A stretch of 64,000 nucleotides of DNA, taken from the IMG/VR virus record IMGVR_UViG_3300045988_149624; one strand, given 5' to 3'. Origin of the DNA: a virus. The translations under genes and the position numbers were made by a program. The notes beneath the pieces were generated by a model. That model did not search any database. It was not told the origin of the DNA and was given only the letters and a program-made list of their open reading frames with translations. Position 1 is the stretch's first letter. Each line of letters starts with the position of its first letter. Positions 3,638-36,202 of this stretch are shown piece after piece.

Positions 3638-3694
3638 ACATATCAAATATAATATAAATTAACAAGGTATTTTAAGAAAAAGGAGATGGTCAAG

Positions 3695-4186
3695 ATGGCA
3701 ATATTTGTAGGCGTTGGAAGAACAGATGAGTGTTCTAACAGTAAAAAAGAAGAAAAAGAAAAAAAATGGAAACTTTTATCGGAAATTAAATTAACAGCGA
3801 ATAATCCAAAAATACTTATAAAACAAGATGCAGAAGGAAATGGATTTAGCTGTGAAAGAATAATAATTATTGGTAAAATTGTTTCTAACACAACAAGTAA
3901 ACCTATGTGTAAAATAAATAATACTATGGAATTTTCAGGAGTAAATTCGACTTATGTGAATGGGACTAGATATATTTATGAGACATATGAAGACAAAGGT
4001 TTTTTTATAGAAAGAGACACCAAATATCTTACTCAAGACATACTTGAAAGTTCAGTCTTATTTGATAATGGATTCTTTAGGGTAGTTAAAGGTCAAGCTA
4101 ATGGTATAAAATCTATTGAATTATATGGAGATTCACCTTCTTTTGTATTTAAAGCAGGAACAGAGTTGGAAATTTATGGATTCTAA
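3695..4186 (+). CDS. Hypothetical tail/baseplate-module protein
   Basis: Start moved to the second ATG, which has AAGGAG 9 nt upstream. The N-terminus MAIF matches the next two structural ORFs. Confidence 0.6.
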   Translation: MAIFVGVGRTDECSNSKKEEKEKKWKLLSEIKLTANNPKILIKQDAEGNGFSCERIIIIGKIVSNTTSKPMCKINNTMEFSGVNSTYVNGTRYIYETYEDKGFFIERDTKYLTQDILESSVLFDNGFFRVVKGQANGIKSIELYGDSPSFVFKAGTELEIYGF

Positions 4187-10721: not shown

Positions 10722-13700
10722 ATGCCTACAATAAGAAAATATAATAAAGAAACAGAGAAATATAAAAGAATAGCTACCTCCGATGCGTTGGAGGTGGCTA
10801 TTTTAGACGCAGAAGGAAATTTTGAATCTGATAATGTAGAAGGTGCTTTAAGAGAATTAGGAGACGCTAAGGGGCAAATAGAAGTTAATAGAGGCATTAT
10901 AGACGCTGTTAATTCTACTCTTACTGACCATATTAAAAATCACCCAAGTGGTGGGGGTGGCGGAGGCACAATGCCTACTATAAGCACCGACTGGAACGAA
11001 ACTTCTATTGACGGAGATAAAGACTTTACAATTCCTATTTATTTTACATCTCCCAATTTAGGAGAAGGTACTTTATATGTCTTAATTAATAATGTAGAAA
11101 CATCTATACAGACAATTTCTCAAGGTAACAATACTATTAAAATACCTGCTTTAGGGAGTGGTAAAAAAAGACTTTCTATTTATGTAAGAGATAGAGGACA
11201 ACTTATGTCTAATCAATTAACATGGGATATTGTTTGTGGTGGTATCAAACTAACTGTAACGATGAACACAGATATAGATTATACTCTTAAAGATAGAATA
11301 TTATTAACTTACAATATAGACTGTGATTTACAAACTGATATAAATACGATTATTACTATTGACGGAACAGAATATACAGTTAAATCCAATAAAGGGTATA
11401 ACTCTTATGAAATTAAGGGTTTAACAGTAGGGGTTCATAAAGTTGAAATATATGCAACCGCTGATGTTTATTCTACTCCTTCTCAAGTATTTAATGTTAT
11501 AGTTGTTGCTACAGAACAATTGTTTATAACCTCAACATTTGACACAACTAAACAATATGAAAAGGGTCAGCCTATGAATATTAATTACAGAGTCTCTATA
11601 GCAAACACAGATTATTATACTATTAATATGTATGTTGATGATTTTGAAAAACCTATTAAGACATTATCTCAACAACCCGGAAACTACTATTGGACTTTTA
11701 CTCCTGAATTTGAGTTAGGAAAACATACTTTAAGAATAGAAGCTTATAACTCTGATAAGAGTAAAACTGCCACATTAGATTTGCCTTTTGAATTAGTTGC
11801 TTCTAGTTATCAAGCTATGGAATATGTTAGTACAGGTCTAATAGCTTCTTTCAATGCGAAAAATAGAACTAATTCAGATGTTGACAGAGGGTATTGGGTA
11901 GACGATATAAATGGATATATAGGAAGATTGTATAATTCAAATTATGGTACTAACGGTTGGATAGACGGAGAATTAGTATTAAATGGTAACACATATGTAG
12001 AGATTGATATGACTCCTTTTAGTGATAATGTAACTAGAGGATTCACTTTAGACATGGTATTTAGTGTGGAGGATATAGGTAATCCTTTAGCTAGAGTTAT
12101 AGACTGCACAAGTCTTTCTGCTCCTTATCCGGGGCTATATGTTAATCCTTATAAGGCTAATTTGGCTACTGTATCTCATAAGACAGAATTAGATATAGGG
12201 CAAGGAGAAGATATACAGATTACTTTTATGATTGATAGGGTTTCTAAATTTGGTAAGGTATTCATCAACGGAGTATGTTGTGACCCATTCCAATTATCAG
12301 ATTCATCTTCTGGTAGCCAAATAATATATGAGCAAATTAAACACGAAGAAAAAATATATTTAAATAGTGAAAAAGGGACAAGTAATTTTGGCTCTTGCAA
12401 AATAAAAAGAATAATGATGTATGAAAGAGAATTATCAGACGAAGAGGTTCTTCAAAATAGAATAGCAGATATGAAAATAGAAGAGCAAGAAGAAGAATAT
12501 AACAAAAACTATAATGATGCTTATATGCCTTGTATGTACATTTATGGAGATATAAGCAATATGACTTTAACAAATAAAAAAGAAGTTAGAATAAAATATG
12601 TTTCACCTAATGCTGATTTATATGGGTCATCTTTTGAATATCCTAGATGTAAAATGTATTGGCAAGGGACTTCTTCTATTCAATATGCTAATAAGAATTT
12701 TAATATAGAACTAGGAGATAGTGACGGAAATCAAGTATTTTATACTCCTTTTAAGAATGGTATTTTAGAATATTTATTCTGTTTAAAATGTAATCAAATG
12801 GAATCTTCTAATGTTATGAATACAGGGTCTGCTATGTTTGTTAATGACAACTTATATGTAGAAAAGAATCCTGCCCAATTAAAGAATGATAAAGTTAGAC
12901 AGGCTATTGAAGGTTTCCCTATACTTTTATATATAAATGATGAATTTGTCGGACTGTATGATTTCAACTTAGATAGATATAGTTATCGTTCTTATGGATA
13001 TAACTTATTTGATAAGTGTTTAGCTTATGAAGTATCAGCCAACTCTGACACAACAGCAGGTGCTTTTAATTCTTGGACTTCTTCTAGTGGTAAGACAGAA
13101 CAAAATTATTATGCTTCTGATTTTGAATGTTTATATCCTCCAAGTAGACAAAATGGTAATGACAACTTTGCAGAATTAAAAACATTAGTTGATTTCGTAA
13201 GTGGTGCAGATGAAGATTTATTTAAAGAACAGTTTGATACTTATTTTGATAGACAGTCTGTATTTAGATATTATTTATTTGTACAAGTATTTGGGGGAAT
13301 AGATTCTCTGGGAAAAAATATGAAAATAGTTACATTTGATGGTATAAAATGGTATTTGCAAGTATATGACTTAGATAGTTTAATGGGGTTAGACAATACT
13401 GGTGCATTAACGTTTGATGTTGACATAGAAGTTGAAAGTGGAGTATTTAATACATCTAATTCTAAACTATGGAGTAAAATTAGACTTTATTTTGCTAATG
13501 AATTAAAACAAGAATATATTAATATGAGAAATGGTGTATTCACACTTGAAAATATGTATAAATATTTTTACGATAATCAGATGGATAAAATACCTGTAAG
13601 ATACTATAATAAATCTACTGAATATAAATATTTAAGATTTGGTGCAAAATATTTATATGCCTGTCATGGTAATAGATATTTCCAAATAAAAAGATGGTTA

Positions 13701-16700
13701 AAAGAAAGATTGTTATATTGTGATACTTTATTCGGATATGAACCTTCTACTTCTAATTTTGTTACTGTTCGTTGTAATAAACAAGGTAAGGTTTCGATGA
13801 ACATATCGACTTATAGTCCTATGTATTTATCTGTAAAATGGAGAGACGAAGCAGATGGCAGCGGAACACAAACATTAAAAATACCTAGAAATAAATCAGT
13901 TAAATTTAGTTATACGATTCCTACTGCTACAGATCAGGAAGTTATTATATATGGGGCAGAATACATCAAGTCTTTAGGAGATTTAAGTACCTGCAATCCA
14001 ACTCACTTACTTTTATCAAATGCTACGAGAATAAATGAGGTAATATGTAGAAACAGTTCAAAATTAGTAAATGCAGAAATAAATGGTTGCAGCTATTTAC
14101 AAAAAATAGATTTTAACGGCTGTTCTAATTTAGGTAGTTTAACCAGTTATCAGGTTATGGAATTAGCTACCTGTCAAAACTTGAAATATTTAGATATAAG
14201 AGGAACAAAAATGACAGGGGTAAACTTTGATAATAATGGTGGTAACTTAGAGGAAATATATCTTCCTAAAACAATAACATCATTATACTTGAGAAACCAA
14301 TATGCTTTAAAAATTGTAGGTTTGACAAGTGTTAGTTGGTATTCTCCATTTCATACAGAAGCTTTAAGTGGAGCAAGTGATATAACATCATTTACATTAA
14401 TTAATTGTCCTTTAGTAGAAAGACTTACTACCCGTTCAGATATAAGTATGAGTGGATGGAATCAAACATTTTATGATTTTAATGGGAATGCAAGGAATGT
14501 GGATACATTAGGAGATTATGAAGACGCTACTAAGTTTAGAAAGATGGCTCTTTTTGGACTAGGATTATGTAATGCAACTTCTATTCATATAGAAAACAGT
14601 ATGTTATCTACTAGATATATGTCTTTTAGATTTAATTATAGACTAGAAGAATTAACATTAAAATACCTACCTAATCTTCAAGAGTTGACTATTGGAGAAA
14701 CTCAAACAGGACATAGATGGAATGTAACAGATGATATGTGTGGTTCTTTTGATTTTAATAATATTAATATCACAGAATGTCCTAATATAAAAACATTTAG
14801 AATACATCAATATGATGAGAGACAACCTAAATGGTTTAATAGTGGAACTAATGTAATAGATTTAACTAAGTTTGAAAATCTTGAAACATTTACTTGTAAT
14901 ATTACTACTCAAGATTTAAACACGATAATTCTTCCTTCTACATTAAAGATGATATGGATTAAGCCGATGTGTGGATTCTCTAGTACTAATTATCCTAATA
15001 ATTGTTTAAAATCAAAATGCACTCTAAAGAATATATATTTTAAGGAAGACCATCCAAACGGATATGAAGGAATAGACTTTGGAAATAGGGAATTAACAGA
15101 ATTATGTTTATCTGGGGTAATACAGTCAACAGGAACAATAACTGGGGTAAATACTAAAAATACTTATGTTAGTCCTGTATTTAATAATATGAATGAAAAA
15201 GAAAGAGGTTCTGAATCTTATCCTGAAGTAAAAGTCCAAGGGAAAATAGACTTATCTAATTATGATTGGACGGAAGCATACTGGTGGTTCACAAATGTTA
15301 ATTTTACTTCTGATAATTTAGAATTTATTATGCCTAATGACTGGGATTATCTAATAGATACTCGCTTGAAAAGAGTAAGAGGGGTATTCTTTGATTGTAC
15401 AAACCCAAATTTTACTTGGGAATTTGCAGGTAGATTTTTTAAATTATTACAAGACAGAGATGATTTAGGAAAAACATATAAATATGCAACACTTCAAGAA
15501 CAATCTTCTTATGAAGAACAGGCAGTTACAATAGAAAATAATTATGATATAGCAGATTATAACTATGGAGACACACCTTTTGTTGGTTCTAATCTTAAAT
15601 ACATTAGAGAATGTAATTTTAAAGGAAATGCTATAGCATATGGTACTTTCAGAAATTCAAATCTTGTAAAAGTTGGAACAATTACTTGTAGTGGCTCAAA
15701 TGTATGGTGGAGTTCCGAAAGTTTATTCCAAAACAGTAAAAACTTAGAAGAAGTAGAGTGTATCAATATGACTGGAGCTAATAGTACTACAAACTGGTTT
15801 GCTAGTTGTCCTAAATTAAAAAGAGTTGGAACAGTAAATGTAAATGCTAAGAATATAAATCAAATGTATGCTTATTGTCCTCAGCTAACAGAATTAGCAT
15901 TACCTACTTTAACTAATTTAGAGAGAATGAGTGGGTTTGTTAGAGGGTGCACTTCTTTAACTGAATTACATCTTAATGAAATAACAGAAAACACTCCTTT
16001 AGAATATATGGACTGGGCATTTAGAGATTGCCCTAATTTAACTTCTGTAACTATTGGAGGAACTACTCTACCCCCAACATTGGTAACAATGGAGGGAGCG
16101 TATTATGGAGATAAAAAGCTTACAAAAGTAATTCCTTTACCTAATGATTTTAGTAATAAATGTAGTATGCGTTCTTGTTGTTATGGTTGTTCTTCATTAA
16201 CAGATGATAATATATATAAAACTCTTCCATATAATGTAAGTAATATGGATTATATTTATTATGCTTGTCATGGATTGACAAATCCGTCTATAGTAGTCAA
16301 TTCTGACAGAACAAGTTCTCAATCTTGTTTTGAGGGGTGTGCAAACATAAAATCTGTTAGAGCAGAATTTAATGGTACATATTCTTATGGATTTAATAAT
16401 TTCTGTAATAACTGTGGAGAACTCACAGATGCTTATATTAAATTCCCTTATTCTCTATATTTTAATGATGATGCACAGACTTGCTCTGAAAATGGGAATA
16501 TATTTGCTTATTGTAAAAAGCTTATAAACGTAGAGTTGAATATGACTAGATTAGAAAGTAAATCAGATTTTAGAGCAATGTTTAGACAGGATAAATATAT
16601 AGAATCTATAAAAGGATTTGATTTAAGCAATCTTCATAGAGATGATAGAAGACCAAATGATAACGCTTGGTATTTTACTTATGATACATCTTTTGAATTT

Positions 16701-16928
16701 ATGAAGGATTGGGTATTTGCGACAGACGAAAATGGTAATACTAAAAAATTAACAAATTCATATAAGATGTATAATTTAGAATTAACTCCTGCTGCTACTA
16801 TAGAATCTCTTATGAATGGGTTAGGAACAGTACAAGCAGAAACATTAACATTAGGTCAAGCAACCTTAAATAGGCTATCGGAAGAACAAAAAGCTAATGC
16901 AGTAGCAAATGGTTGGACTTTAGCGTAG
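10722..16928 (+). CDS. Giant tail fibre/receptor-binding protein: Gly linker, Ig-like repeats, LamG-like domain, CotH-kinase-like domain, BspA-type leucine-rich repeats
   Basis: AGAGGTGA RBS. LVLNGNTYVEIDM..GKVFINGVC (LamG-like). FRYYLFVQVFGGIDSLGKNMKIVTFDGIKWYLQVYDLDSLMG (CotH-like). Repeated F..C..L..V......(M/F)..C..LT in the C-terminal third. Confidence 0.75.
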   Translation: MPTIRKYNKETEKYKRIATSDALEVAILDAEGNFESDNVEGALRELGDAKGQIEVNRGIIDAVNSTLTDHIKNHPSGGGGGGTMPTISTDWNETSIDGDKDFTIPIYFTSPNLGEGTLYVLINNVETSIQTISQGNNTIKIPALGSGKKRLSIYVRDRGQLMSNQLTWDIVCGGIKLTVTMNTDIDYTLKDRILLTYNIDCDLQTDINTIITIDGTEYTVKSNKGYNSYEIKGLTVGVHKVEIYATADVYSTPSQVFNVIVVATEQLFITSTFDTTKQYEKGQPMNINYRVSIANTDYYTINMYVDDFEKPIKTLSQQPGNYYWTFTPEFELGKHTLRIEAYNSDKSKTATLDLPFELVASSYQAMEYVSTGLIASFNAKNRTNSDVDRGYWVDDINGYIGRLYNSNYGTNGWIDGELVLNGNTYVEIDMTPFSDNVTRGFTLDMVFSVEDIGNPLARVIDCTSLSAPYPGLYVNPYKANLATVSHKTELDIGQGEDIQITFMIDRVSKFGKVFINGVCCDPFQLSDSSSGSQIIYEQIKHEEKIYLNSEKGTSNFGSCKIKRIMMYERELSDEEVLQNRIADMKIEEQEEEYNKNYNDAYMPCMYIYGDISNMTLTNKKEVRIKYVSPNADLYGSSFEYPRCKMYWQGTSSIQYANKNFNIELGDSDGNQVFYTPFKNGILEYLFCLKCNQMESSNVMNTGSAMFVNDNLYVEKNPAQLKNDKVRQAIEGFPILLYINDEFVGLYDFNLDRYSYRSYGYNLFDKCLAYEVSANSDTTAGAFNSWTSSSGKTEQNYYASDFECLYPPSRQNGNDNFAELKTLVDFVSGADEDLFKEQFDTYFDRQSVFRYYLFVQVFGGIDSLGKNMKIVTFDGIKWYLQVYDLDSLMGLDNTGALTFDVDIEVESGVFNTSNSKLWSKIRLYFANELKQEYINMRNGVFTLENMYKYFYDNQMDKIPVRYYNKSTEYKYLRFGAKYLYACHGNRYFQIKRWLKERLLYCDTLFGYEPSTSNFVTVRCNKQGKVSMNISTYSPMYLSVKWRDEADGSGTQTLKIPRNKSVKFSYTIPTATDQEVIIYGAEYIKSLGDLSTCNPTHLLLSNATRINEVICRNSSKLVNAEINGCSYLQKIDFNGCSNLGSLTSYQVMELATCQNLKYLDIRGTKMTGVNFDNNGGNLEEIYLPKTITSLYLRNQYALKIVGLTSVSWYSPFHTEALSGASDITSFTLINCPLVERLTTRSDISMSGWNQTFYDFNGNARNVDTLGDYEDATKFRKMALFGLGLCNATSIHIENSMLSTRYMSFRFNYRLEELTLKYLPNLQELTIGETQTGHRWNVTDDMCGSFDFNNINITECPNIKTFRIHQYDERQPKWFNSGTNVIDLTKFENLETFTCNITTQDLNTIILPSTLKMIWIKPMCGFSSTNYPNNCLKSKCTLKNIYFKEDHPNGYEGIDFGNRELTELCLSGVIQSTGTITGVNTKNTYVSPVFNNMNEKERGSESYPEVKVQGKIDLSNYDWTEAYWWFTNVNFTSDNLEFIMPNDWDYLIDTRLKRVRGVFFDCTNPNFTWEFAGRFFKLLQDRDDLGKTYKYATLQEQSSYEEQAVTIENNYDIADYNYGDTPFVGSNLKYIRECNFKGNAIAYGTFRNSNLVKVGTITCSGSNVWWSSESLFQNSKNLEEVECINMTGANSTTNWFASCPKLKRVGTVNVNAKNINQMYAYCPQLTELALPTLTNLERMSGFVRGCTSLTELHLNEITENTPLEYMDWAFRDCPNLTSVTIGGTTLPPTLVTMEGAYYGDKKLTKVIPLPNDFSNKCSMRSCCYGCSSLTDDNIYKTLPYNVSNMDYIYYACHGLTNPSIVVNSDRTSSQSCFEGCANIKSVRAEFNGTYSYGFNNFCNNCGELTDAYIKFPYSLYFNDDAQTCSENGNIFAYCKKLINVELNMTRLESKSDFRAMFRQDKYIESIKGFDLSNLHRDDRRPNDNAWYFTYDTSFEFMKDWVFATDENGNTKKLTNSYKMYNLELTPAATIESLMNGLGTVQAETLTLGQATLNRLSEEQKANAVANGWTLA

Positions 16929-27752: not shown

Positions 27753-28682
27753 ATGAATAAACTAATTGAGTTTTTCAATGAAAAATACGGAGACAAATAT
27801 GGGAAGATTCCTTATCCAAGAACAACAATGCAGATATATAGAGTATATCAGTCTATAAAAAGTTATGGGATAAAGGATGAAGAGTTAGTTAAATTGTTAC
27901 ATAATATTAAATTACCTAAACCAAAATCTATAGAAGAAAAAGAGTTATATACAGATTGTTTATACAACAAAGATGATAGTGAGATGGTAATAGATACAAG
28001 TAATTTAATTTCTAAAGAAAACCCTGTATTTACTGGTAGTATGAGTATGAATAGGAAAGAAGGGGCAACTATAGGAGAATATAGCGTTGCTATCGGGAAA
28101 ACTGTTGAAGCGTCAGGAGAATGTTCTTATGCAGAAGGTAAGAATACAACTGCTAGTGGATGGAGTTCTCATGCAGAAGGAGAGGAAACGAAAGCTAAGG
28201 GGCAAACTTCCCACGCAGAAGGAGATAATTCAATCGCTGAAGGCATAAGTTCCCACGCAGAAGGCAGTTATGCAGTTGCCAGTGGAATAACTTCTCATGC
28301 AGAAGGAGAGGGAACAAAAGCTTATGGAAAATCATCTCATGCAGAAGGTAGTTTTACAACTGCCTCTTCAAATTATCAACACGTTCAGGGTAAATATAAT
28401 ATAGAAGATAAAAGTAATAAATATGCCCATATAGTTGGTAATGGTAAAAGTGGTATGGAAAGAAGTAATGCACATACATTAGACTGGGAAGGTAATGGTT
28501 GGTATGCTGGTAAATTATCTCAAGAAGGTACGCCTACCGAAGATAAAGATTTAGTTACTAAAAAATATGCAGATGCTTCTTTAGAAAATAAAGTAGATAA
28601 ATCTCAATTATCATTTAATTCTGACGGAGAACTTGTTGTAACTATAGATGGAATTAGTAAAACATTCGTACCTAAAGCCTAA
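27753..28682 (+). CDS. Tail fibre, member F of the family, with SHAEG head-like repeats
   Basis: Strong N-terminal module. The motif (S/Y)(H/Y)AEG recurs about 7 times at ~14-aa spacing. NAHTLDWEGNGWYAGKLSQEGTPTEDKDLVTKKY is shared with ORF 19974. Confidence 0.8.
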   Translation: MNKLIEFFNEKYGDKYGKIPYPRTTMQIYRVYQSIKSYGIKDEELVKLLHNIKLPKPKSIEEKELYTDCLYNKDDSEMVIDTSNLISKENPVFTGSMSMNRKEGATIGEYSVAIGKTVEASGECSYAEGKNTTASGWSSHAEGEETKAKGQTSHAEGDNSIAEGISSHAEGSYAVASGITSHAEGEGTKAYGKSSHAEGSFTTASSNYQHVQGKYNIEDKSNKYAHIVGNGKSGMERSNAHTLDWEGNGWYAGKLSQEGTPTEDKDLVTKKYADASLENKVDKSQLSFNSDGELVVTIDGISKTFVPKA

Positions 28683-28714
28683 TTTAAATTCACAATTTTA
28701 AAAAAAATAAACAC

Positions 28715-28743
28715 TTGACAACGTTATTACAAAGTAATATAAT
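28715..28743 (+). promoter_or_regulatory. Consensus sigma-A-type promoter
   Basis: TTGACA (28715-28720), 17 nt spacer, TATAAT (28738-28743). The spacer start AACGTTATTA resembles the early-promoter family. Confidence 0.7.
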
Positions 28744-28770
28744 ATTCTTATAAGATTGGAGGATATTAAA

Positions 28771-28824
28771 ATGAATAATAAAAAAATGATAAAAGAAATA
28801 CTAAAGAAAATATTGAAGGCATAA
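28771..28824 (+). CDS. Micro-ORF, 17 aa (MNNKKMIKEILKKILKA), cationic amphipathic peptide
   Basis: GGAGGA sits 6 nt before the ATG, downstream of the consensus promoter and upstream of the terminator at 28905. Confidence 0.4.
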   Translation: MNNKKMIKEILKKILKA

Positions 28825-28904
28825 TTTTTAAATATAATAAATATTTTAATATATAAATGCGAATAATATAGATAAGTTATTCTATTTGTATTATTTATGG
28901 ATTA

Positions 28905-28940
28905 CCCTCTAGTCTTATGGCTAGGGGGTTGTTTTTATTT
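28905..28940 (+). terminator. Rho-independent terminator
   Basis: CCCTCTAG-8 nt-CTAGGGGG (one G.U pair) followed by TTGTTTTTATTT. Confidence 0.7.
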
Positions 28941-28976
28941 ATAGTCCATTTTAAGTGGAAAATTTTTAAAAAGTAG

Positions 28977-29005
28977 TTGTATTTTTGTAATATTTATCAT
29001 ATAAT
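28977..29005 (+). promoter_or_regulatory. Candidate parMR promoter flanked by GTCCA(T/C)TTTAA(G/A)TG boxes
   Basis: TTGTAT, 17 nt spacer, TATAAT. Related 14-mers at 28944..28957 and 29026..29039. Confidence 0.45.
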
Positions 29006-29054
29006 AATATCAGAAAGGGCAAAAAGTCCACTTTAAATGATATGGAGGGTTAAT

Positions 29055-29975
29055 ATGAATAATGTAAGTATATGCAGTGCTGACATAGGCAATATCACAA
29101 GTATCTTCATGGGAGATAAAAGTAGTGACATTTTAATAATTGAAAGTAGAATAGAAAAATATTCTACGATTAAAGAACTTGGAGATAATGAAATATTTGA
29201 AACAGATGAAAAATGGATAGTAAATCAAGGAGAATTTAAAAACGAACATTTAAAATTTAAAAAAGATAACTTCTTTAATTTACTTTATTATGGATTGGCT
29301 AAAGTAAGTAAAAATAATAGAATCAAACTTGTATTAGGAATTCCCGCAGGACAATATAATGAATACAGTCAGGAATTAAAAGCATTAATAAAACAAAATA
29401 ATATGAAAAAGATAACTCTTGGATCAGGTAAAGATAGAGGAACTAGAACAATTTATATTGAAGATGTGATAATTCGTCCTGAAAGCTATGGAATTAAAAA
29501 TTTAAAGTCCGTAAATAAGGCACAAGTAGAAGCAAAAACTCTTATCGTAGATATAGGTGGAGGAACAACAGATATAGCTATATTTAATGAGAAGAATAAA
29601 TTTATAGACGGAGAATCTTTAGACATAGGACTATTAGAGTTATATCATAATGTAAAGAAGTATATCTCTATGAAATATTGTAAGATTAGTCTTGAAGATG
29701 CTAAAAAAGTATTTGACGGAGAAATTAAAATGATTAATATACAAGATTATTCTTTTCTTAAAGAGTTCCAAGATGACTTTATGAATAAATTATTAAATGA
29801 ATTTAAGGGGAGTTTCCCAAGTGCTATTTCATGTAATTTAATTCTTGCAGGGGGTGGGGGAGAAATAGGTATCGACTACTTTAAGGAAGAATATCCTCAA
29901 ACTATTTTAGTAAATGATATTGGAGTAAATGCAAAAGCCTTTCGTTTAATGGGGTTAAAGAAATGGCAAAAATAA
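29055..29975 (+). CDS. Actin-like segregation ATPase (ParM/Alp family)
   Basis: Start at the ATG after GGAGGG. Actin-fold motifs SADIGNITSIF (phosphate 1), LIVDIGGGTTDIAIF (phosphate 2) and LILAGGGGE (adenosine). Confidence 0.75.
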   Translation: MNNVSICSADIGNITSIFMGDKSSDILIIESRIEKYSTIKELGDNEIFETDEKWIVNQGEFKNEHLKFKKDNFFNLLYYGLAKVSKNNRIKLVLGIPAGQYNEYSQELKALIKQNNMKKITLGSGKDRGTRTIYIEDVIIRPESYGIKNLKSVNKAQVEAKTLIVDIGGGTTDIAIFNEKNKFIDGESLDIGLLELYHNVKKYISMKYCKISLEDAKKVFDGEIKMINIQDYSFLKEFQDDFMNKLLNEFKGSFPSAISCNLILAGGGGEIGIDYFKEEYPQTILVNDIGVNAKAFRLMGLKKWQK

Positions 29976-30253
29976 AAGAGATTAGAATTAGATTTTATGA
30001 AAATGAAATAGCACTATATGACTATGTAATCTCTAAAAGAAGTGCATCAGGGTTTCTTAAAGATTTAGCAGAAGTAGAAAGGAAACGTGAACAAAATTAT
30101 GTAAACAACAATATAAATATAGATATGTTATTGGGGAAAATAGCAGGATTAAATACTTCTAATAGTATACAAAAATCTTCTCAAATAGAAAATGAAGTAG
30201 AGAATAATTTAGACGATTTTATAGATAATTTTGATGATGAGTTTGATGATTGA
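29963..30253 (+). CDS. ParR-like adaptor (RHH-like N-terminus, acidic C-terminus)
   Basis: Overlaps the parM-like gene. N-terminal beta-strand plus helices (IRIRFYENEIALYDYV). C-terminal DDFIDNFDDEFDD. Confidence 0.5.
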   Translation: MAKIKEIRIRFYENEIALYDYVISKRSASGFLKDLAEVERKREQNYVNNNINIDMLLGKIAGLNTSNSIQKSSQIENEVENNLDDFIDNFDDEFDD

Positions 30254-30278
30254 CAAACTGTTTACAATATTGTATAAT
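30250..30278 (+). promoter_or_regulatory. Consensus sigma-A-type promoter overlapping the ParR-like stop codon
   Basis: TTGACA (30250-30255), 17 nt spacer, TATAAT (30273-30278). Confidence 0.6.
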
Positions 30279-30309
30279 ATAAATATAGTTCGATATTTTT
30301 ATATATATG

Positions 30310-30367
30310 ACCACCGTAACCCTAATTATAAGCTCAACTTAATAGTCTTATTACGGTGGTTATTTTA
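30310..30367 (+). terminator. Long-loop hairpin plus U-rich tract (parMR terminator and/or leader attenuator)
   Basis: ACCACCGTAA (30310-30319) pairs perfectly with TTACGGTGGT (30351-30360) and is followed by TATTTTATT. Confidence 0.5.
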
Positions 30368-30385
30368 TTAAAGGAGGAAATACAA

Positions 30386-30667
30386 ATGGAGGAAAGAAAT
30401 CCTTATGAACTCCCTATTGTTCCTCGACAACATCAGATTAAAGTAGAGGAAGCTAGAGAATTAAGGCTTATTGATTTATTTATTGATGAAGGGAATCACG
30501 AGAAGCAACTAAGTAGAGCAGACCTTATACTTATTTATTCCCTATATGAAGATGGATTAAAGGAATTTTTAGATGATTATTTGGACTATGTAGAGAGAGA
30601 AGTAGACACAAAGGGATATAAAGTTGTTAATAAACCTCACTTCTATCTCAAATCAACAGTAGGATAA
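30386..30667 (+). CDS. Hypothetical protein
   Basis: AAAGGAGGAAA RBS 6 nt before the ATG. No motif recognised. Confidence 0.6.
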   Translation: MEERNPYELPIVPRQHQIKVEEARELRLIDLFIDEGNHEKQLSRADLILIYSLYEDGLKEFLDDYLDYVEREVDTKGYKVVNKPHFYLKSTVG

Positions 30668-30697
30668 TCACTCTTAGTAGGGTGATTATTTTTTTTT
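30664..30697 (+). terminator. Rho-independent terminator
   Basis: ATAATCAC-10 nt-GTGATTAT followed by T8. Confidence 0.8.
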
Positions 30698-30768
30698 ATA
30701 TATTTTTAATAAAAAGTGTAATATTTTCCATACTTTTTCATATAATGAAGTAAAAGGAGGGAAAAATA

Positions 30769-30948
30769 ATGAAAGGAAATAAAACAGTTATACCTGTAAG
30801 TTTTAAAAATAATATGGAGGATAAATTACTATTCTCTTGGTTAGAAGATAAATTCGAAGAATATGGTAATAAAAGTAATTATATAAAATATATTTTAAGA
30901 AAACAAATGTTATCTGAATCAAATCAATTTACTCAAAAGGTCAAATAA
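30769..30948 (+). CDS. Small ribbon-helix-helix-like protein (59 aa; below the ORF-track length cutoff)
   Basis: AAAGGAGGG RBS. TVIPVSFKNNMEDKLLFSWLEDKFEEYGNKSNYIKYILRKQM fits a beta-alpha-alpha pattern. Confidence 0.55.
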   Translation: MKGNKTVIPVSFKNNMEDKLLFSWLEDKFEEYGNKSNYIKYILRKQMLSESNQFTQKVK

Positions 30949-31046
30949 CATTGCAAGTCCAAACCAAAATAAAGCTTCATTCATTTTTGTCACCTCGGTT
31001 ATTCATAATTATATTATTAGTGTTAACTAAAAGGAGGATATTATAC

Positions 31047-31427
31047 ATGAAATCTTATACTTTCAAGGAATATAGACAAATGACAGAGAATAAATGTACA
31101 GTTGTAGAAAAATGCTTAAATGTTTTAAAGAAAAATAAAAAAGAATATAAAAAGATGGTTATACTAATAGCAATACTAATGCACAAAGGATTATTTTGTT
31201 ATGCAGCTACTACGGAAGCAGAAATATCTAATGTAGCAACACAAATCTTAAACCTGCTAATGATATTTGCACGATATGGATGTATGTGTATGGGCATAAA
31301 AAGTATTATAGAAAATGCATTACAAGGAGCGAACTTCCGTCAAGCTACTAATTCAGGTGTTCAATATTTTTTAATCTATATACTTTTAACATTCTACCCA
31401 AAATTATTCACAATGATTAAATTATAG
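31047..31427 (+). CDS. VirB2/TrbC-pilin-like membrane protein (called from topology)
   Basis: Start at the ATG after AAAGGAGGA. Signal-like TM ending CYAA, then two hydrophobic helices separated by a polar loop (ILNLLMIFARYGCMCMGI...VQYFLIYILLTFY). Confidence 0.45.
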   Translation: MKSYTFKEYRQMTENKCTVVEKCLNVLKKNKKEYKKMVILIAILMHKGLFCYAATTEAEISNVATQILNLLMIFARYGCMCMGIKSIIENALQGANFRQATNSGVQYFLIYILLTFYPKLFTMIKL

Positions 31428-31438
31428 GAGGGTTTATT

Positions 31439-31711
31439 ATGGAAGAGAAAATAGATAAATTAATAGGTGTCATGGATAAACTGACAGATATAGGAGATAA
31501 TCTTTTACATCCGATAGAATTTCTACAAGAAGCTGGTTATAAACTATTAGTAGCCATACAAGATTATTCATTTAATATATGTCTAGTCGCAGGATTTATT
31601 GCTCTTATATTATATGTGTTCGGTTATGACAAAGGAAAACGTTGGGCGTTTGTTATACCTTGCATATATTTAATTTTAAATATTATAGTAGGAGTCCTTA
31701 CAAATGCTTAA
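31439..31711 (+). CDS. Small two-TM membrane protein (VirB3/PrgI-like by position)
   Basis: GGAGGG RBS. Two C-terminal TMs. Overlaps the downstream ATPase gene. Confidence 0.4.
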   Translation: MEEKIDKLIGVMDKLTDIGDNLLHPIEFLQEAGYKLLVAIQDYSFNICLVAGFIALILYVFGYDKGKRWAFVIPCIYLILNIIVGVLTNA

Positions 31712-33956
31712 AAGTATACCTATCTCAAAGTATTTTGAGATTAAAAATCAAGAATATATATATTTAAAATTAATCCCAACAAAATCTATCAGAAATAATC
31801 GAACATTTTCAATTCTATATCTTGTGAATAAGATGTTTGTAAACTTAAATAACCTTATACAAATCGAAAATAAAAAAGTTATTCTAAAAACACAATTCAA
31901 AGCAAGTTATTATATACACATCACAAATGATAAAATTAATTTTTATTTTATCGTACCTAAATTATTCTATTCTAAATTCAAAGTTAAATTCAAAGAAATA
32001 TGGAAGTCTGTAGAGATAAAAGAAGTTGATAATATTCCTTTAATAGAAGGCGGATCTAAATATCAACTTGTCTATAAAAATAGAGACTTTTTATCTAGCG
32101 ATACAGATATGAGAAATAATGATTTATTAAATGCAAATATGAATGTAATTGAATTACTTCAAGATGAAGAAGAGGCAGGGATATTTTATAACTTCATTCC
32201 TGTATCAGAAAAGCAATCAAATTATTTTAGAGCATCTTGTCAAAAGTTTATAAAAGAATACAGAAACACTTCTGTCAAATATACTTCAAATAAAATGATG
32301 AATATTGTTATTAAGATATTAGATTTTACTGTGGATTTTTTTAATTCAACTTTAGACTTAATGTTTGGAGTTAAACAAAATAAATCAGAAAAAGTTGTTA
32401 ATTTTGATTCTTTAAGTAACAATACTTTAAAAAAGGGAATGAGTGATTTATGCAAAACCCAAATCCTAATTTCTACAAAAGGAGAAAATAAGAGAAGAGA
32501 TAAGATTATAGCAGATGCTATTGTTGGTTCTTATGGAGAAATAAAAGATGATAATGAATTTATATGTAGGAGAGTGAAAAAAGAAATGGATATTTTGAAA
32601 CCTGTGTTAAGCAATATTAATCAATTAAATACATCTGTACTTGAATGTAGTAATTTTATTGCACTTCCGGGAGAAGAATTAATTCAACAATTCCCTAATA
32701 TAGAACATAATAGTGTATATAATAAAAAATTCCCTAGATGTTTGGCTAATGGTGATATACTTATAGGAACATCTTTAAAGAATGAACCTATCTATTATTC
32801 TACAGATAAAGAATTAAGCCGTCTAGGAAGGATTCTAATGGGTGGTATGGGTTGTGGTAAAACTTACTACATGACAAACCTTGCTAAATCTATAATAGCT
32901 AAAGGAGATGGATTAGTAGTATTAGATATTATTAGAGATTGTAGTCTGTCAGAAACCATAAAAAGGGTAATTCCTAAAGATAGGCTTATAGAAATTGATT
33001 GCAGTAATTATAATCAACTACAAGGATTCTGTTTTAATGAATTAACTTGTGATGATAGTGAGGATAAATATAAGAAATTAGCTAAATGTATGGAAAAGGC
33101 TACACAATTACACATCTTATTAAACACTATTAATGCAGATACTAAATTAACTCCTAGAATGCTAAGATATTTTTATTCTGCTTGTACGGTAGCCTTTTAT
33201 AAAAATTTTAATGCCAGTTTTAAAGATATAATAGGTATACTTATGTATCCTAATGCAAGAAGAAAAGCCTTAGAATGGCTTACAGAAGGTCAAAAAAAAT
33301 TACTTGAAGATGAAATAAACGATTTAAGTGAGTTAGATAAAGAAAATAAAGATGGGGAAGTGGAAAATTACGATAGCAAGATAGATGGCATAATAGATAG
33401 AGTGAGCTTATTAAAAACTAATTTATATACTAAACTAGCCTTCAATAAGTCAGCAGAAGAGAATATAAATTTTGTGAAAGCATTAGATGAAAATAAAGTT
33501 ATATTAATAAAGGCTAGAGAAGAGGATTTTACTAACAGAAATATAAGAGACTTAATTGCTACATTTTATTTAAGTAAAGTTTGGTTGTCAAAACAAATCA
33601 GTTCAAATACTAGAACAGAAATATTCTTTGATGAAATCAATCTATTTCCAACGGCACAGACAATTCTTCAAGATATATTAACTGAATGTAGAAAGTATTC
33701 TTTTATACCTACGATATCTTTACACTTCTTAAATCAATGTAATAAAAAATGCAAAGACGCAATTTTGAGCAGCGGTTGCAGTTTTATCCTCCTTGCAGGA
33801 GCTGATGTAAAGTGTTTTGAAGAACTAAGGGGATTATTCTATAAAGAAGGGTATACAGAGACGGATATGCTTAATTTGAAGCGATTTCATGCATTGTGTT
33901 TAATCAGAAATGAAGAGAAAGGATATTCGGCATTTATTGTAAAGTTGCCAAAATAA
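31704..33956 (+). CDS. VirB4/VirD4-type (FtsK-HerA superfamily) secretion/DNA-translocation ATPase
   Basis: Walker A MGGMGCGKTYYM. Walker B EIFFDEINLF. CRKYSFIPTISLHFLNQ plus AILSSGCSFILLAG resemble the RK..v..atQs / tkifl motifs of T4SS ATPases. Confidence 0.55.
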   Translation: MLKSIPISKYFEIKNQEYIYLKLIPTKSIRNNRTFSILYLVNKMFVNLNNLIQIENKKVILKTQFKASYYIHITNDKINFYFIVPKLFYSKFKVKFKEIWKSVEIKEVDNIPLIEGGSKYQLVYKNRDFLSSDTDMRNNDLLNANMNVIELLQDEEEAGIFYNFIPVSEKQSNYFRASCQKFIKEYRNTSVKYTSNKMMNIVIKILDFTVDFFNSTLDLMFGVKQNKSEKVVNFDSLSNNTLKKGMSDLCKTQILISTKGENKRRDKIIADAIVGSYGEIKDDNEFICRRVKKEMDILKPVLSNINQLNTSVLECSNFIALPGEELIQQFPNIEHNSVYNKKFPRCLANGDILIGTSLKNEPIYYSTDKELSRLGRILMGGMGCGKTYYMTNLAKSIIAKGDGLVVLDIIRDCSLSETIKRVIPKDRLIEIDCSNYNQLQGFCFNELTCDDSEDKYKKLAKCMEKATQLHILLNTINADTKLTPRMLRYFYSACTVAFYKNFNASFKDIIGILMYPNARRKALEWLTEGQKKLLEDEINDLSELDKENKDGEVENYDSKIDGIIDRVSLLKTNLYTKLAFNKSAEENINFVKALDENKVILIKAREEDFTNRNIRDLIATFYLSKVWLSKQISSNTRTEIFFDEINLFPTAQTILQDILTECRKYSFIPTISLHFLNQCNKKCKDAILSSGCSFILLAGADVKCFEELRGLFYKEGYTETDMLNLKRFHALCLIRNEEKGYSAFIVKLPK

Positions 33957-33959
33957 CTA

Positions 33960-33988
33960 TTGACAAAATATGTAATTTATTATATCAT
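33960..33988 (+). promoter_or_regulatory. Sigma-A-type promoter of an ORF-less unit
   Basis: TTGACA (33960-33965), 17 nt spacer, TATCAT (33983-33988). Confidence 0.55.
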
Positions 33989-33994
33989 ATAATT

Positions 33995-34089
33995 GCAATG
34001 GACATTTATATGTGCCTATATGAATAATTCGTATAGGTTAATTAACCCAAAATAAGAGTTGAAATATCTCCAACTCTTATTTTTTTTTA
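33995..34089 (+). ncRNA. Candidate ~95-nt small RNA
   Basis: Lies between the promoter and a strong terminator. Internal hairpin CCTATAT/GTATAGG (34015-34037). Only a 9-codon ORF, with no RBS. Confidence 0.4.
34048..34089 (+). terminator. Rho-independent terminator
   Basis: AAAATAAGAGTTG-9 nt-CAACTCTTATTTT plus a T-run. Confidence 0.85.
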
Positions 34090-34192
34090 TACATTTTTAT
34101 GTAATTTTATTTATTTTTATATACTTTTAAAAAAGGGGCGTATTTCACCTAAATTGCTATAACCGATATGAACATTCCGCATATATTTCAGT

Positions 34193-34268
34193 TAGCTATT
34201 TTATAGCTATTACATATATGCTACATATATCATAGCATATGCAAATTGGTATTAAAAATATTCCAATT
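34193..34268. repeat. Cluster of three inverted repeats in the AT-rich convergence region
   Basis: TAGCTAT-TTT-ATAGCTA (34193-34209). ATATGCTA-9 nt-TAGCATAT (34216-34240). AATTGG-13 nt-CCAATT (34244-34268). Confidence 0.8.
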
Positions 34269-34299
34269 TAACAAAGTTTTAATAATTTTAATAATGTTG

Positions 34300-34524
34300 T
34301 TAACTGTTTTGCTTTTCATATTCTAGTATTTTATTGAGTATATCTATCTGCATTTCTTGAGAAATATCTAATCTAATTTTTAACTTCTCTATTTCTTTAT
34401 TTAAACATTCTCTTAATTCACTCGATATACTATAACCTAAAAGATTCTCCATAGCCCTTATTTTGTTTTCTATTGGACTGTGTTTCCTCTCAAATAAACT
34501 ACTCATTTCGTTATATAAATTCAT
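34300..34524 (-). CDS. Hypothetical protein
   Basis: ATG after AGGTGA. The track's upstream start is a GTG inside the RBS. Confidence 0.55.
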   Translation of the reverse strand: MNLYNEMSSLFERKHSPIENKIRAMENLLGYSISSELRECLNKEIEKLKIRLDISQEMQIDILNKILEYEKQNS

Positions 34525-34533
34525 ATTATTCAC

Positions 34534-34731
34534 CTATCCATTATACTGTTGTTCCAGTATTTCTTTTATTTTTAATAATTCATTATATAAATCTTGATTT
34601 AATTTCATTCTAAATTCCTCTGCATCAGATACAAGAGAGCCAGTAGAAGTAATCAAATGTTCTTCTGCTTTAATTGAACGTAACTCGCTAACTACTAGCT
34701 CAATCAATATAAGAAGCTGTTCTTTATTCAT
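34534..34731 (-). CDS. Hypothetical protein
   Basis: AGGAGA RBS. Helical and acidic. Confidence 0.55.
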   Translation of the reverse strand: MNKEQLLILIELVVSELRSIKAEEHLITSTGSLVSDAEEFRMKLNQDLYNELLKIKEILEQQYNG

Positions 34732-34740
34732 ATTATTCTC

Positions 34741-35313
34741 CTATCTAGTACCAGTACTACCAAAGCCGCCTCTGTCTTCATTTTCTAAAGAATCTACTTC
34801 TATAAATGTTGGCATTTTCATAGCATCTACAATTTCAAATTGTGCTATTTTATCACCTTTTCTTATCCAAGTGCCAAATACAGTTTCAGAACATAATTCA
34901 TCAACAGGCATTGATTCACTATTTTTAGGGTTAATACATACAAGAGGTGCTAACCATTCATCATTATCTCCACAATATGTATCATCTATAATACCAACGG
35001 AATTAGTTAACATACAACCCCAAGTTTTAAATGTACTACTTCTAGGATATAATTTAGCTATTTTACCTTTGGGTAACTCCATAGCAAATCCTAAATGTAC
35101 TAATCCCATTTCAAATTGAGGTATAAATATATCTTCTCTCGAATAAACATCAATTAAATTTCCTTTTGGGTTTATTTTTAATTTAGTTGCTCCTTCAAAA
35201 TATTTAATCTTTATATCCATACTACCACTCCATTCTATTTTATTCATATATTTTAAAAATTTATTTTTATATTTTGTTATATAATCATAATTTTCAAATT
35301 CAAATTTACTCAT
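34741..35313 (-). CDS. dut: dUTPase (trimeric type) with N-terminal extension
   Basis: C-terminal motif V EDRGGFGSTGTR. GIIDDTYCGDNDEW (motif III-like). GGAGTGA RBS. Confidence 0.8.
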   Translation of the reverse strand: MSKFEFENYDYITKYKNKFLKYMNKIEWSGSMDIKIKYFEGATKLKINPKGNLIDVYSREDIFIPQFEMGLVHLGFAMELPKGKIAKLYPRSSTFKTWGCMLTNSVGIIDDTYCGDNDEWLAPLVCINPKNSESMPVDELCSETVFGTWIRKGDKIAQFEIVDAMKMPTFIEVDSLENEDRGGFGSTGTR

Positions 35314-35533
35314 ATTTATTCACTCCAACTACTGCATCTGCATACCAATAATATCTACCCATATCTAAATCTATTTTAAACTTTACTATAGGATTAGAAC
35401 TACACATTTTTGTTATAGTAGCAGTTTTACCTGCATACTGAAACATACCTTCTGTTAAATCAGTATATCTACCATAATCTAAATTACAGGCTATTCTAAT
35501 CTTGTCTCCTACTTTAAGTCTTCTTATTTTCAT
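35306..35533 (-). CDS. Hypothetical protein
   Basis: ATG 5 nt after AAGGGTGA. Confidence 0.55.
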   Translation of the reverse strand: MKIRRLKVGDKIRIACNLDYGRYTDLTEGMFQYAGKTATITKMCSSNPIVKFKIDLDMGRYYWYADAVVGVNKYE

Positions 35534-35538
35534 ATTTA

Positions 35539-35962
35539 TCACCCTTTCCTTTCAATATTATCAAACCCTTCAATTATACAAGGTGGTTCAATATTTTCAG
35601 ATTCATTTAGTAACCAATGTGAAGATACAAATTTCTTCTTAAAATAAACACAATCAATTTCTACATCTTTTACATCTTCCTTAACATAAGAAATTATATT
35701 TTTCCTTCCTTCTCTAGTAAGATTACGCCCATCATATATAACAGAGCAACCTTTCTTTAAGTTATCAACTATTTCTTGTTTTGCTTTATCTATTATAACA
35801 CTAGATTTGCCATCAGTAAGTCTTTTTAAATAACCAAATTCTTTTACTTCTAAAACATCATAAGAAACAATTACCGTATCTTTATTTCCAAATACATATT
35901 GTTTAGCATAAGTAGTTTTACCAGTGTTCGGTAATCCTACTAACATTATAAATTTATTCAAA
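35539..35962 (-). CDS. P-loop kinase (polynucleotide/nucleotide kinase-like, AAA_33-type)
   Basis: TTG start 5 nt after GGAGGGG. Walker A LVGLPNTGKTTYA. The track's upstream extension overlaps the preceding ORF. Confidence 0.6.
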
Positions 35963-36202
35963 TTATCCCCTCCTATAGAAATTGCAAGAGACTGAATGAA
36001 AACTTCTATTTTTACCTTTAGTGCATATCTGCCCTGAAGGCTTAGAGAAATCATAATATTCACAAAATCCACAACATTTAGTATTTATATTCCATTCTTT
36101 AGCCTTCAAGCAGATACCTAAAGCATCTATTATTTCGCAATCATTACACTTTCTTCTCTCACAATATTCTTTAATTTCTGAAAGTGATTGATAAATGCTC
36201 AT
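35963..36202 (-). CDS. Cys-rich small protein
   Basis: 9 Cys in 79 aa (EYCERRKCNDCE..CCGFCEYYD). Confidence 0.55.
   Translation of the reverse strand: MSIYQSLSEIKEYCERRKCNDCEIIDALGICLKAKEWNINTKCCGFCEYYDFSKPSGQICTKGKNRSFHSVSCNFYRRG

Follow-up and report, generated by a model that had tools for sequence, protein, structure and literature searches.

A drastically reduced, virus-borne variant of the type IV secretion core of the SPP1 gp31-gp32 type in a large phage genome

Bacteriophage SPP1 carries a set of four genes, 31, 31.1, 31.2 and 32, of which 31.2 and 32 are early and non-essential according to the 2018 SPP1 genome paper (PMC6316719). The same paper predicts transmembrane segments in gp31.1 and gp31.2, relates the C-terminus of gp32 by HHpred to TrwB, VirB4 and FtsK, and proposes gp32 together with gp31.1 and gp31.2 as a possible translocon; it describes no further parts in SPP1 that resemble a type IV secretion system (T4SS). 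A literature search for a characterised function of gp32-type proteins returned only this 2018 annotation. Here we report on the counterpart of this set in IMGVR_UViG_3300045988_149624, of which a stretch of 64,000 nucleotides (nt), called the window in the following, was analysed; it is only part of a genome of roughly 110-145 kb. At 30769-33956 on the + strand the window contains a cassette of four co-oriented, tightly packed open reading frames (ORFs), which encode a ribbon-helix-helix (RHH)-like protein of 59 amino acids (aa), a membrane protein of 126 aa (A), a two-transmembrane protein of 90 aa (B) and a P-loop ATPase of 750 aa. All four ORFs had been described as an RHH protein plus a T4SS-like triad in a first-pass annotation, and all are present as described there; that the module is widespread and already noted in the SPP1 literature had been missed. 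Set against known systems, the module is a strongly pared-down version of the T4SS core that is carried by a virus, and it is neither a conjugation locus nor the remnant of one. We read the cassette as a self-contained, T4SS-derived, membrane-anchored and ATP-driven machine of the SPP1 gp31-gp32 type that would act as a translocon for the DNA of its element, and we give this reading as a whole a probability of roughly 0.45, which is somewhat below even. Within it, what the proteins are is on much firmer ground than what they move, and for the function of the module the translocation of element DNA is our best guess. Taken protein by protein, the T4SS assignment holds for the ATPase; it is plausible for A as a pilin-like protein and unsupported for VirB3.

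The ATPase (31704-33956, +) carries most of the argument. It belongs to phrog_5156, a PHROGs family of 'unknown function', with E 2.4e-78 over residues 6-748, and the same family contains SPP1 gp32 (E 1.4e-288), JL gp150 (E 0), Tsamsa gp257 (E 3.6e-244) and the ATPase of TPDSL_ph2; SPO1 gp27.4 and phage G gp156 are further counterparts. An exhaustive HMMER search extended the ATPase family to 490 clusters at 50% identity, in which the cluster members of the distant homologues are all metagenomic. In an alignment of 74 sequences G385 and K386 of the Walker A motif, D643 and E644 of the Walker B motif, E446, R519 and R566 are invariant, and so are K244 and E314 in the N-terminal half. The motifs GGMGCGKT, FFDEINLF and RKYSF..ISLHFLNQ, which had been quoted in the first-pass annotation for a VirB4/VirD4-type ATPase, are all found in the translation. 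An AlphaFold2 model built on the 74-sequence alignment reached a predicted local distance difference test score (pLDDT) of 90.6, and Foldseek against the PDB ranked full-length TrwK/VirB4 of R388 first (E 7e-13, about 900 aligned columns) and TrwB second (E 5e-11), followed by the VirB4 C-terminal domain of Thermoanaerobacter (4ag6, E 1.5e-9) and HerA (E 1.7e-9). Since the full-length template modelling scores (TM-scores) were no higher than those for the motor domain alone, residues 1-350 were modelled separately (pLDDT 90.3). For this N-terminal model the top 13 of 350,542 PDB chains are all TrwK/VirB4, the best with E 2.6e-4 and aligned across the whole domain, a match that is weak in absolute terms (TM-score 0.30-0.41). 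As far as the models go, the N-terminal domain thus resembles VirB4 remotely but specifically, and the protein is predicted to be an intact, remote member of the VirB4 architecture with both VirB4 domains, i.e., a VirB4-like N-terminal domain (about residues 1-350) followed by a RecA-type motor with an all-alpha insert. The assignment to the T4SS ATPases, for which a structure prediction had been suggested as a check, is in this way borne out at the level of fold, with TrwK/VirB4 and not a packaging or KAP NTPase as the best PDB match. Packaging and KAP NTPases were rejected as identities for the protein, as Foldseek places VirB4, TrwB and HerA far above other classes. A coupling protein was rejected as well, because the ATPase lacks the N-terminal transmembrane anchor. 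It has no transmembrane segment at all: hydrophobicity peaks at about residues 200-220 (family median 1.25), but this part is amphipathic, and hydropathy together with acidic content ruled it out as a transmembrane helix.

Sequence profiles give a fainter picture. Pfam returned only AAA_14 and TrwB_AAD_bind for the window ATPase, both below cut-off, and NCBIfam only a TraD fragment below threshold, while the CagE_TrbE_VirB/AAA_10 and NCBIfam VirB4 models had no match in the window ATPase and 53 family members. Sub-threshold TrwB_AAD_bind matches occur in 20 of these 53. A search of the PDB with the single ATPase sequence gave no useful match, and the family profile gave weak, P-loop-centred ones (TrwB, E 0.003; VirB4 4ag5, E 0.049). 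For all four window proteins Pfam, NCBIfam and PADLOC stayed below threshold; the best PADLOC match is mad8 for the ATPase (E 4.9e-5, 21 bits), which is not significant, and the others have E > 0.005. Of the profile searches that had been proposed for the triad, those with the curated VirB4, TrbC/VirB2 and PrgI/VirB3 models yielded nothing above threshold; it is PHROGs that places the ATPase, in phrog_5156. Two distant ATPase homologues (L027, 6001-8262, and L025, 6001-8316) are labelled with the Pfam family DUF8128 (PF26449) in precomputed annotation. This family is absent from our Pfam scans, possibly because it is absent from the Pfam copy used, and it may already cover the ATPase clade.

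Protein A (31047-31427, +) is a membrane protein like SPP1 gp31.1. Its basic N-terminus of about 36 residues is followed by a hydrophobic segment that ends in ..CYAA directly before TTEAE, and then by two hydrophobic helices that flank a polar loop (hydrophobic segments at about residues 37-53, 67-83 and 108-124). This layout fits the topology of VirB2/TrbC pilins. Among the 113 members of the A family, TrbC is the top Pfam family (three members, best E 3.7e-4) and T4SS_pilin the second (two members, best E 0.014), both below the gathering score, and gp31.1 of the SPP1 type was aligned to positions 9-88 of the 98-position TrbC model. The A family profile found no pilin in the PDB, and tblastn with window A found nothing significant in phages. 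Iterative searches join the Clostridial and the Bacillus phages in both directions: jackhmmer from SPP1 gp31.1 reached window A at 1.4e-45 with 64 shared matches, and jackhmmer from window A reached Tsamsa, JL, L023 and Nachito; this linkage is one of iterative searching with a small membrane protein, and window A has no direct match to phrog_5422. From the earlier description of A as pilin-like the topology holds up, whereas the profile side amounts to sub-threshold TrbC and T4SS_pilin matches in relatives, so that 'pilin-like' is a supported analogy whose homology is unproven.

Protein B (31439-31711, +) consists of about 45 soluble N-terminal residues and a C-terminal two-transmembrane hairpin with a short basic loop (hydropathy peaks 2.5 and 2.65). 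It sits at the position of VirB3 and is translationally coupled to the ATPase gene, with which its gene shares 8 nt; in SPP1 and in the loci L027, L030 and L023 the overlap is 4 nt. B is presumed to be the membrane anchor of the ATPase. Window B has homologues in the B proteins encoded by Clostridial loci and by plasmids, and with SPP1 gp31.2 it has position, size, C-terminal transmembrane hairpin and overlap in common, while iterative searches give no link between the two. The VirB3 and PrgI models found no match at E <= 1 in nine B proteins, and the B family profile found no relevant structure in the PDB. B is a two-transmembrane protein whose gene overlaps that of the ATPase, as had first been described; its identification with VirB3 is unsupported, given an inverted topology and no sequence match.

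The first gene of the module (30769-30948, +) encodes the 59-aa counterpart of SPP1 gp31. It matches phrog_4223 and phrog_14312, the same two families as SPP1 gp31, and jackhmmer from it reached SPP1 gp31 (3.5e-11) and an ORF in the ParR position behind the actin-like gene of L023 (1.4e-10). No match was obtained for it in Pfam, nor in the PDB with the RHH family profile; the RHH fold is predicted from the strand-helix-G-helix pattern in the family alignment. The RHH-like call of the first-pass annotation can thus be kept, and to it can be added that the protein is conserved and ParR-like, so that it is best described as a ParR-like, predicted RHH-type DNA-binding protein. A ParR-like RHH protein usually heads the operon. 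Just upstream of the cassette lies a ParM/actin-like gene (29037-29975, +; Pfam ALP_N 6.4e-10; phrog_691 'partition protein' 7e-30), whose end is overlapped by a ParR-like gene of 96 aa (29963-30253, +). As the 96-aa protein matches phrog_4223 like the 59-aa protein, the locus has two paralogous proteins of the ParR/RHH type. L023 has a single ORF of this type, in the ParR position ahead of the module. When the ATPases were clustered at 60% identity, 10 of the 24 lineages had a ParM-like ORF no farther than about 5 kb from the ATPase gene, among them the virulent myovirus JL and the siphovirus Tsamsa, and in nine of these 10 it is located 1.7-2.7 kb upstream on the same strand. In one further lineage, the distant relative L025, a TubZ-type tubulin gene (2340-3741, -) and a small downstream ORF lie beside A, B and the ATPase, in the place held by ParM and ParR in other lineages. 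ParM recurs in the neighbourhood of the module, to which it may be linked functionally, and its linkage and that of TubZ, together with the ParR-like first gene, point towards a role in DNA handling as judged by gene content.

The cassette is a putative transcription unit of its own that is bracketed by terminator-like hairpins on both sides. The hairpin at 30661-30692 (+) closes the upstream unit and forms the 5' boundary of the cassette, and a perfect 9-bp hairpin with a loop of 9 nt and nine T, read directly from the sequence at 34053-34088 with no strand assigned to it, lies between convergent operons and is likely the terminator of the cassette. The mechanical ORF of A opens at the TTG at 30951. 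The ATG at 31047 is preceded by the Shine-Dalgarno-like AACTAAAAGGAGG (31025-37), which is almost identical to the AAGTAAAAGGAGG (30748-60) in front of the 59-aa gene, and it is therefore the likely start of A. The arrangement is intact in 16 related viral contigs (66-100% identical) and recurs in dozens of distant loci, and for this reason it is more than chance. Near-identical ATPases are encoded on viral contigs of 71-145 kb, and the source names of relatives at 72-75% identity are Romboutsia timonensis and Intestinibacter bartlettii.

The surrounding genome is that of a low-GC (about 28%) tailed phage. The cassette was said to lie between the late and early modules, and it is located exactly at the point where the coding strand flips from + to - and where the GC skew flips as well: the + strand side holds an endolysin and a tail-fibre protein, and the - strand side holds a DNA polymerase, NrdD, RecJ, a DnaB-like helicase, a primase and methyltransferases. 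Because parM and the parR-like gene are just upstream of the cassette, the host element does look like a phage-plasmid in its gene content. A module specific for phage-plasmids was ruled out, since integrative prophages and strictly virulent phages carry it, too. Megablast of 28000-36000 against phages and plasmids and Rfam on 28600-34800 gave zero matches, and the search for centromere-like repeats around the cassette found only short AT-rich repeats at chance level.

Beyond the close relatives the module is found in SPP1, SPO1, Tsamsa, phage G, and Clostridium phages and plasmids, and its carriers comprise virulent phages, temperate phages, phage-plasmids and plasmids. The window ATPase is about 21% identical to the SPP1-type ATPase, represented here by that of Bacillus phage 049ML003, which is 98.9% identical to SPP1 gp32, and tblastn with the window ATPase reached 65 sequenced phages. 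In the flanks of phiCp-D, TPDSL_ph2 and 049ML003 a protein of about 120-140 aa and one of about 80-105 aa are followed by an ATPase of about 800 aa. Among 58 loci searched with hidden Markov models and iteratively, A, B and the ATPase occur together in essentially every one that has upstream DNA, including SPP1-like phages, phiCp-D, TPDSL_ph2, Nachito, a C. tetani plasmid and 25 Clostridia genomes; the search for related loci that started from a 16-sequence ATPase alignment reached only Clostridia. Across the loci the ATPase is preceded by one or two small membrane proteins, of which the last is translationally coupled to it. In phage JL (L021) the best A-like ORF (462-986, gp156) lies upstream of the StbA/ParM gene and not directly before the ATPase, and the A/B position is filled by three very small membrane ORFs (44-66 aa); therefore, the small-protein complement of the module is plastic. 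A VirB6, VirB8, hydrolase, coupling protein or relaxase was found neither among the window ORFs scanned nor in the flanks of SPP1, TPDSL_ph2, phiCp-D, 049ML003, Tsamsa, JL and Nachito, which agrees with the earlier view that this is not an ordinary conjugation locus. The suggestion that it might be a remnant has to be given up, as the ORFs are intact, B and the ATPase gene are translationally coupled, and the module is conserved in a family of about 490 clusters at 50% identity. In PLSDB, 37 of the 38 plasmids that carry the ATPase are typed non-mobilizable. The large C. botulinum neurotoxin plasmids (pCLJ, L029, 61728-64528 of NC_012654.1) have the ATPase behind a single A-like ORF and lack B; MOB-suite gives pCLJ the type MPF_T yet calls it non-mobilizable, and transfer has been reported for plasmids of its group.

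The hosts of the phages with the module form a narrow set. The window ATPase found 65 phage records, the query from the SPP1-like phage 049ML003 found 107 and the JL query 145, and in all three the hosts are Bacillus, Geobacillus, Lysinibacillus, Brevibacillus, Alicyclobacillus, Clostridium and Terrisporobacter, plus one Microcystis record. Microcystis apart, we take all these genera to be endospore-forming Firmicutes. As a control, the portal protein of JL found 837 records, including Staphylococcus (343), Enterococcus (69), Listeria (54) and Lactobacillus (26). From this comparison it follows that phages of non-sporulating hosts that share the portal are well represented and that none of them has the module. 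We have not found this host restriction or the linkage to ParM/TubZ reported.

With the translocon reading, the following mechanism can be assumed. B would tether the ATPase, assembled as a ring, to the cytoplasmic membrane by way of the VirB4-like N-terminal domain of the ATPase, and A would supply the membrane or extracytoplasmic part: either the ATPase would extract A and polymerise it, in the way that VirB4 handles VirB2, or A would line a small conduit. ATP hydrolysis would then drive a macromolecule across or along the membrane, for which we consider the DNA of the element itself, marked by the ParR-like RHH protein, the most likely substrate, and in many lineages the adjacent ParM filament system would position this DNA. 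The role would probably be to help the element persist or spread in hosts that sporulate, and not to produce virions; it is taken to be accessory because the genes are non-essential in SPP1.

Several points weigh against this reading. The cargo, and transport itself, are a guess, and we know of no classical T4SS in which VirB4 itself acts as a DNA pump. The structural likeness of the ATPase to VirB4 is remote (TM-scores 0.3-0.4, identity 8-10%), and none of the curated VirB4, VirB2 and VirB3 models reaches threshold. Window A has no match in Pfam, TrbC (PF04956) and T4SS_pilin (PF18895) included, and since the signal-like segment is missing in some A proteins (those of the Tsamsa type and the 76-aa form of L023), a uniform pilin processing is argued against. 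VirB3 has an N-terminal transmembrane hairpin and a cytoplasmic C-terminal part, whereas in B the soluble part is N-terminal to the hairpin, i.e., the topology is the inverse, and the homology of the B proteins of Bacillus phages and Clostridial phages is not demonstrable by iterative searches. The RHH protein could be a mere autoregulator, the linkage to ParM could be a mere co-location of plasmid-type genes, and the host pattern could reflect the boundaries of gene pools and not sporulation. Moreover, Spo0A boxes (TGTCGAA) are absent from the window, where 2.5 would be expected.

Among the rival explanations, a role as 'moron'-type cargo for superinfection exclusion or anti-phage defence is unlikely, but the least so. 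The complex, expressed from a prophage or early in the lytic cycle, would then block or reverse the entry of phage or plasmid DNA, or abort infection. It would agree with this that the cassette is autonomous with terminators at both ends, that in temperate relatives it is placed between the lysis genes and the integrase, which is the usual site of accessory cargo, that plasmids carry the module as well, and that it is early and non-essential in SPP1 (PMC6316719). HerA/FtsK-type ATPases are known in defence systems, and the weak mad8 match goes in the same direction; nevertheless, there is no convincing PADLOC family, and the proteins are without a nuclease or other effector domain. Exclusion also leaves unexplained why ParM and ParR are recurrently linked to the module and why its first gene is ParR-like, and it does not account for the lack of the module in the portal-related phages of Staphylococcus, Listeria and Enterococcus. 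A slightly lower probability has to be given to a DNA-free function, in which the module would be a minimal pilus, filament or protein-secretion device that polymerises A into a surface fibre or exports a protein, with adhesion, cell-cell contact or a change of the envelope as possible uses. The established role of VirB4 is indeed pilin dislocation and pilus biogenesis (general T4SS knowledge; R388 structure papers, PMC9259494). A has a VirB2-like topology with TrbC and T4SS_pilin as the best Pfam families of its family, and the gene order is that of virB2-virB3-virB4. However, the pilin matches are sub-threshold, the A proteins of some lineages are without a signal-like segment, and a scan of the flanks and window ORFs found no VirB6-like platform, VirB5-like tip or hydrolase for a thick peptidoglycan. 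The conserved ParR-like protein and the ParM linkage would be left unexplained here, too.

Two further explanations are far less probable. That the cassette is a decaying conjugative fragment captured by the phage, or part of a complete system elsewhere in the genome, is very improbable, although homologues are labelled 'type IV secretion system DNA-binding domain', 'TraD' or 'conjugal transfer protein' by PGAP and depositors and although pCLJ is typed MPF_T by MOB-suite. The four ORFs are intact in the 16 close relatives at 66-100% identity, the catalytic residues are invariant in 74 diverse sequences, translational coupling is conserved, the family has about 490 clusters at 50% identity, and SPP1, TPDSL_ph2 and phiCp-D all have this compact set, with no T4SS genes in the flanks examined there. 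Furthermore, profile comparison with TcpD, TcpE and TcpF of pCW3 was null for the small proteins and gave only E 0.002 and a probability of 14% for the motor domain. The least credible explanation, one that we consider close to negligible, is a misreading of a P-loop enzyme outside the T4SS, i.e., a packaging ATPase, KAP NTPase, helicase or ABC-type protein. The depositor names 'lipid A export ATP-binding/permease' (MsbA) and 'DNA helicase or translocase' and the weak AAA_14 and STAND matches in Pfam could be taken for it, but in Foldseek VirB4, TrwB and HerA come far above any other class and the N-terminal domain has VirB4 only among its top 13 matches, the terminase matches in PHROGs are marginal, and the gene lies outside the packaging module.

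As a hypothesis only, and one less likely than the exclusion and pilus explanations though clearly ahead of the last two, the module could be a device of mobile elements specific to spore-formers, in which the ParR-like adaptor and the VirB4-derived membrane motor, often with ParM or TubZ filaments, would bring phage or plasmid DNA to the asymmetric septum or through it, and the element would thereby end up in the forespore or in a sister cell. If true, the element would encode its own equivalent of SpoIIIE, assembled from parts of a T4SS. It would explain that the virulent phages SPP1 and SPO1 keep genes that are dispensable in vegetative culture, that plasmids carry the module, and that it is lacking in related phages of non-sporulating Firmicutes.

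Two further regions lie next to the cassette. The 103-aa ORF between the ParR-like gene and the module (30356-30667, +) has a perfect TTGACA-17-TATAAT promoter (30250-30278) and its own terminator, the hairpin at 30661-30692; it is present only in the closest relatives and has weak matches to HEPN-type Pfam families (E 0.008). Behind the ATPase gene, a near-consensus promoter TTGACA-17-TATCAT at 33960-33988 is followed about 65 nt further by the hairpin with nine T at 34053-34088, with no ORF in between, and 33960-34088 is either a candidate small RNA or only a bidirectional terminator between convergent operons. Farther away, the late region encodes a protein of 2068 aa (10722-16928, +) with a CotH kinase domain (Pfam E 2.4e-10), which has a further match in phrog_9915 ('unknown function'); CotH takes its name from a spore-coat kinase. 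It also holds an HNH homing endonuclease (8923-10014, +; phrog_559, E 5e-73), and the early genes include an IS200/IS605 TnpB-type transposase (62217-63320, -; phrog_506, E 5e-139). At 2-3253 (+) the window edge truncates an ORF of at least 1083 aa that combines an SLT transglycosylase with an NlpC/P60 peptidase domain. This pair of domains occurs in the cell-wall hydrolases of Gram-positive T4SSs. The ORF is 27 kb off, in the tail region, and is probably a tail lysin or tape-measure protein.

If functional, the module would be the most reduced VirB4-based machine known in bacteria, and its carriers are viruses and not conjugative elements. It would show how T4SS parts are re-used outside conjugation, and it may throw light on the means by which phages and plasmids gain a place in spores or keep competitors out. 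Since it is present in SPP1 and SPO1, two classical and genetically tractable model phages, its role is directly testable in Bacillus subtilis. For annotation, a family of about 490 clusters at 50% identity that is called 'hypothetical protein' receives a defensible name, and the misleading labels 'MsbA lipid A export', 'TraD' and 'VFDB virulence factor' are corrected.

Compared with known membrane-associated motors, the ATPase belongs to the same superfamily as the hexameric TrwB, Streptomyces TraB and SpoIIIE/FtsK. TrwB is its second-best fold match and, like the window ATPase, has a small RHH DNA-binding partner (TrwA); for the window ATPase, DNA translocation is a putative activity. Unlike TrwB, TraB and SpoIIIE/FtsK, it has neither an N-terminal transmembrane anchor nor a winged-helix gamma domain, and instead carries a VirB4-type N-terminal domain. 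The set TcpD-TcpE-TcpF of the C. perfringens plasmid pCW3, which belongs to the same host phylum, resembles the window cassette in that a VirB4-like ATPase of about 800 aa comes after two small membrane proteins, and pCW3 likewise carries a gene of the ParM/StbA family. However, hhalign of A with TcpD and of B with TcpE was null and that of the ATPase motor with TcpF weak, and the Tcp triad is part of a full transfer locus with coupling protein, VirB6-like protein, hydrolase and relaxase. Similar triads of Gram-positive bacteria are ConC-ConD-ConE of ICEBs1 and Orf17-Orf16 of Tn916. In archaea, the Ced and Ted systems for DNA import consist of a VirB2-like pilin (CedA1/TedC), small membrane proteins and the VirB4/HerA-like CedB; such a reduced set of VirB4 and a pilin-like protein moves DNA without relaxase or coupling protein, which argues that minimal sets can function. 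The Ced and Ted systems, likened to the window module by description only, differ from it by a polytopic VirB6-like membrane protein and are chromosomal and archaeal.

With VirB2-VirB3-VirB4 (TrwL-TrwM-TrwK of R388) the module shares the gene order, both VirB4 domains by fold, the pilin topology of the first small protein, and a second small membrane protein coupled to the ATPase. The virB2-virB3-virB4 order that had caught attention in the first place is thus indeed mirrored by A-B-ATPase, as is that of tcpD-tcpE-tcpF. Unlike the T4SS core, the module reaches no curated profile at threshold, its B is inverted with respect to VirB3, VirB6, VirB8, a VirB1-type hydrolase, VirB11, VirD4 and a relaxase are absent from the window ORFs scanned, and it is encoded by phages, even strictly virulent ones. 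The SPP1 set agrees with the window in gene order and in protein length (RHH-like, then about 126, about 105 and about 800 aa), and it has the same ATPase PHROG, a homologous RHH protein, an A protein linked by iterative search and a B gene that overlaps the ATPase gene. It differs in that the two ATPases are only about 21% identical, homology of the B proteins is not demonstrable, and the window module resides beside parMR in what looks like a large phage-plasmid of gut Peptostreptococcaceae. The window adds a divergent member to a module that was noticed before yet never characterised.

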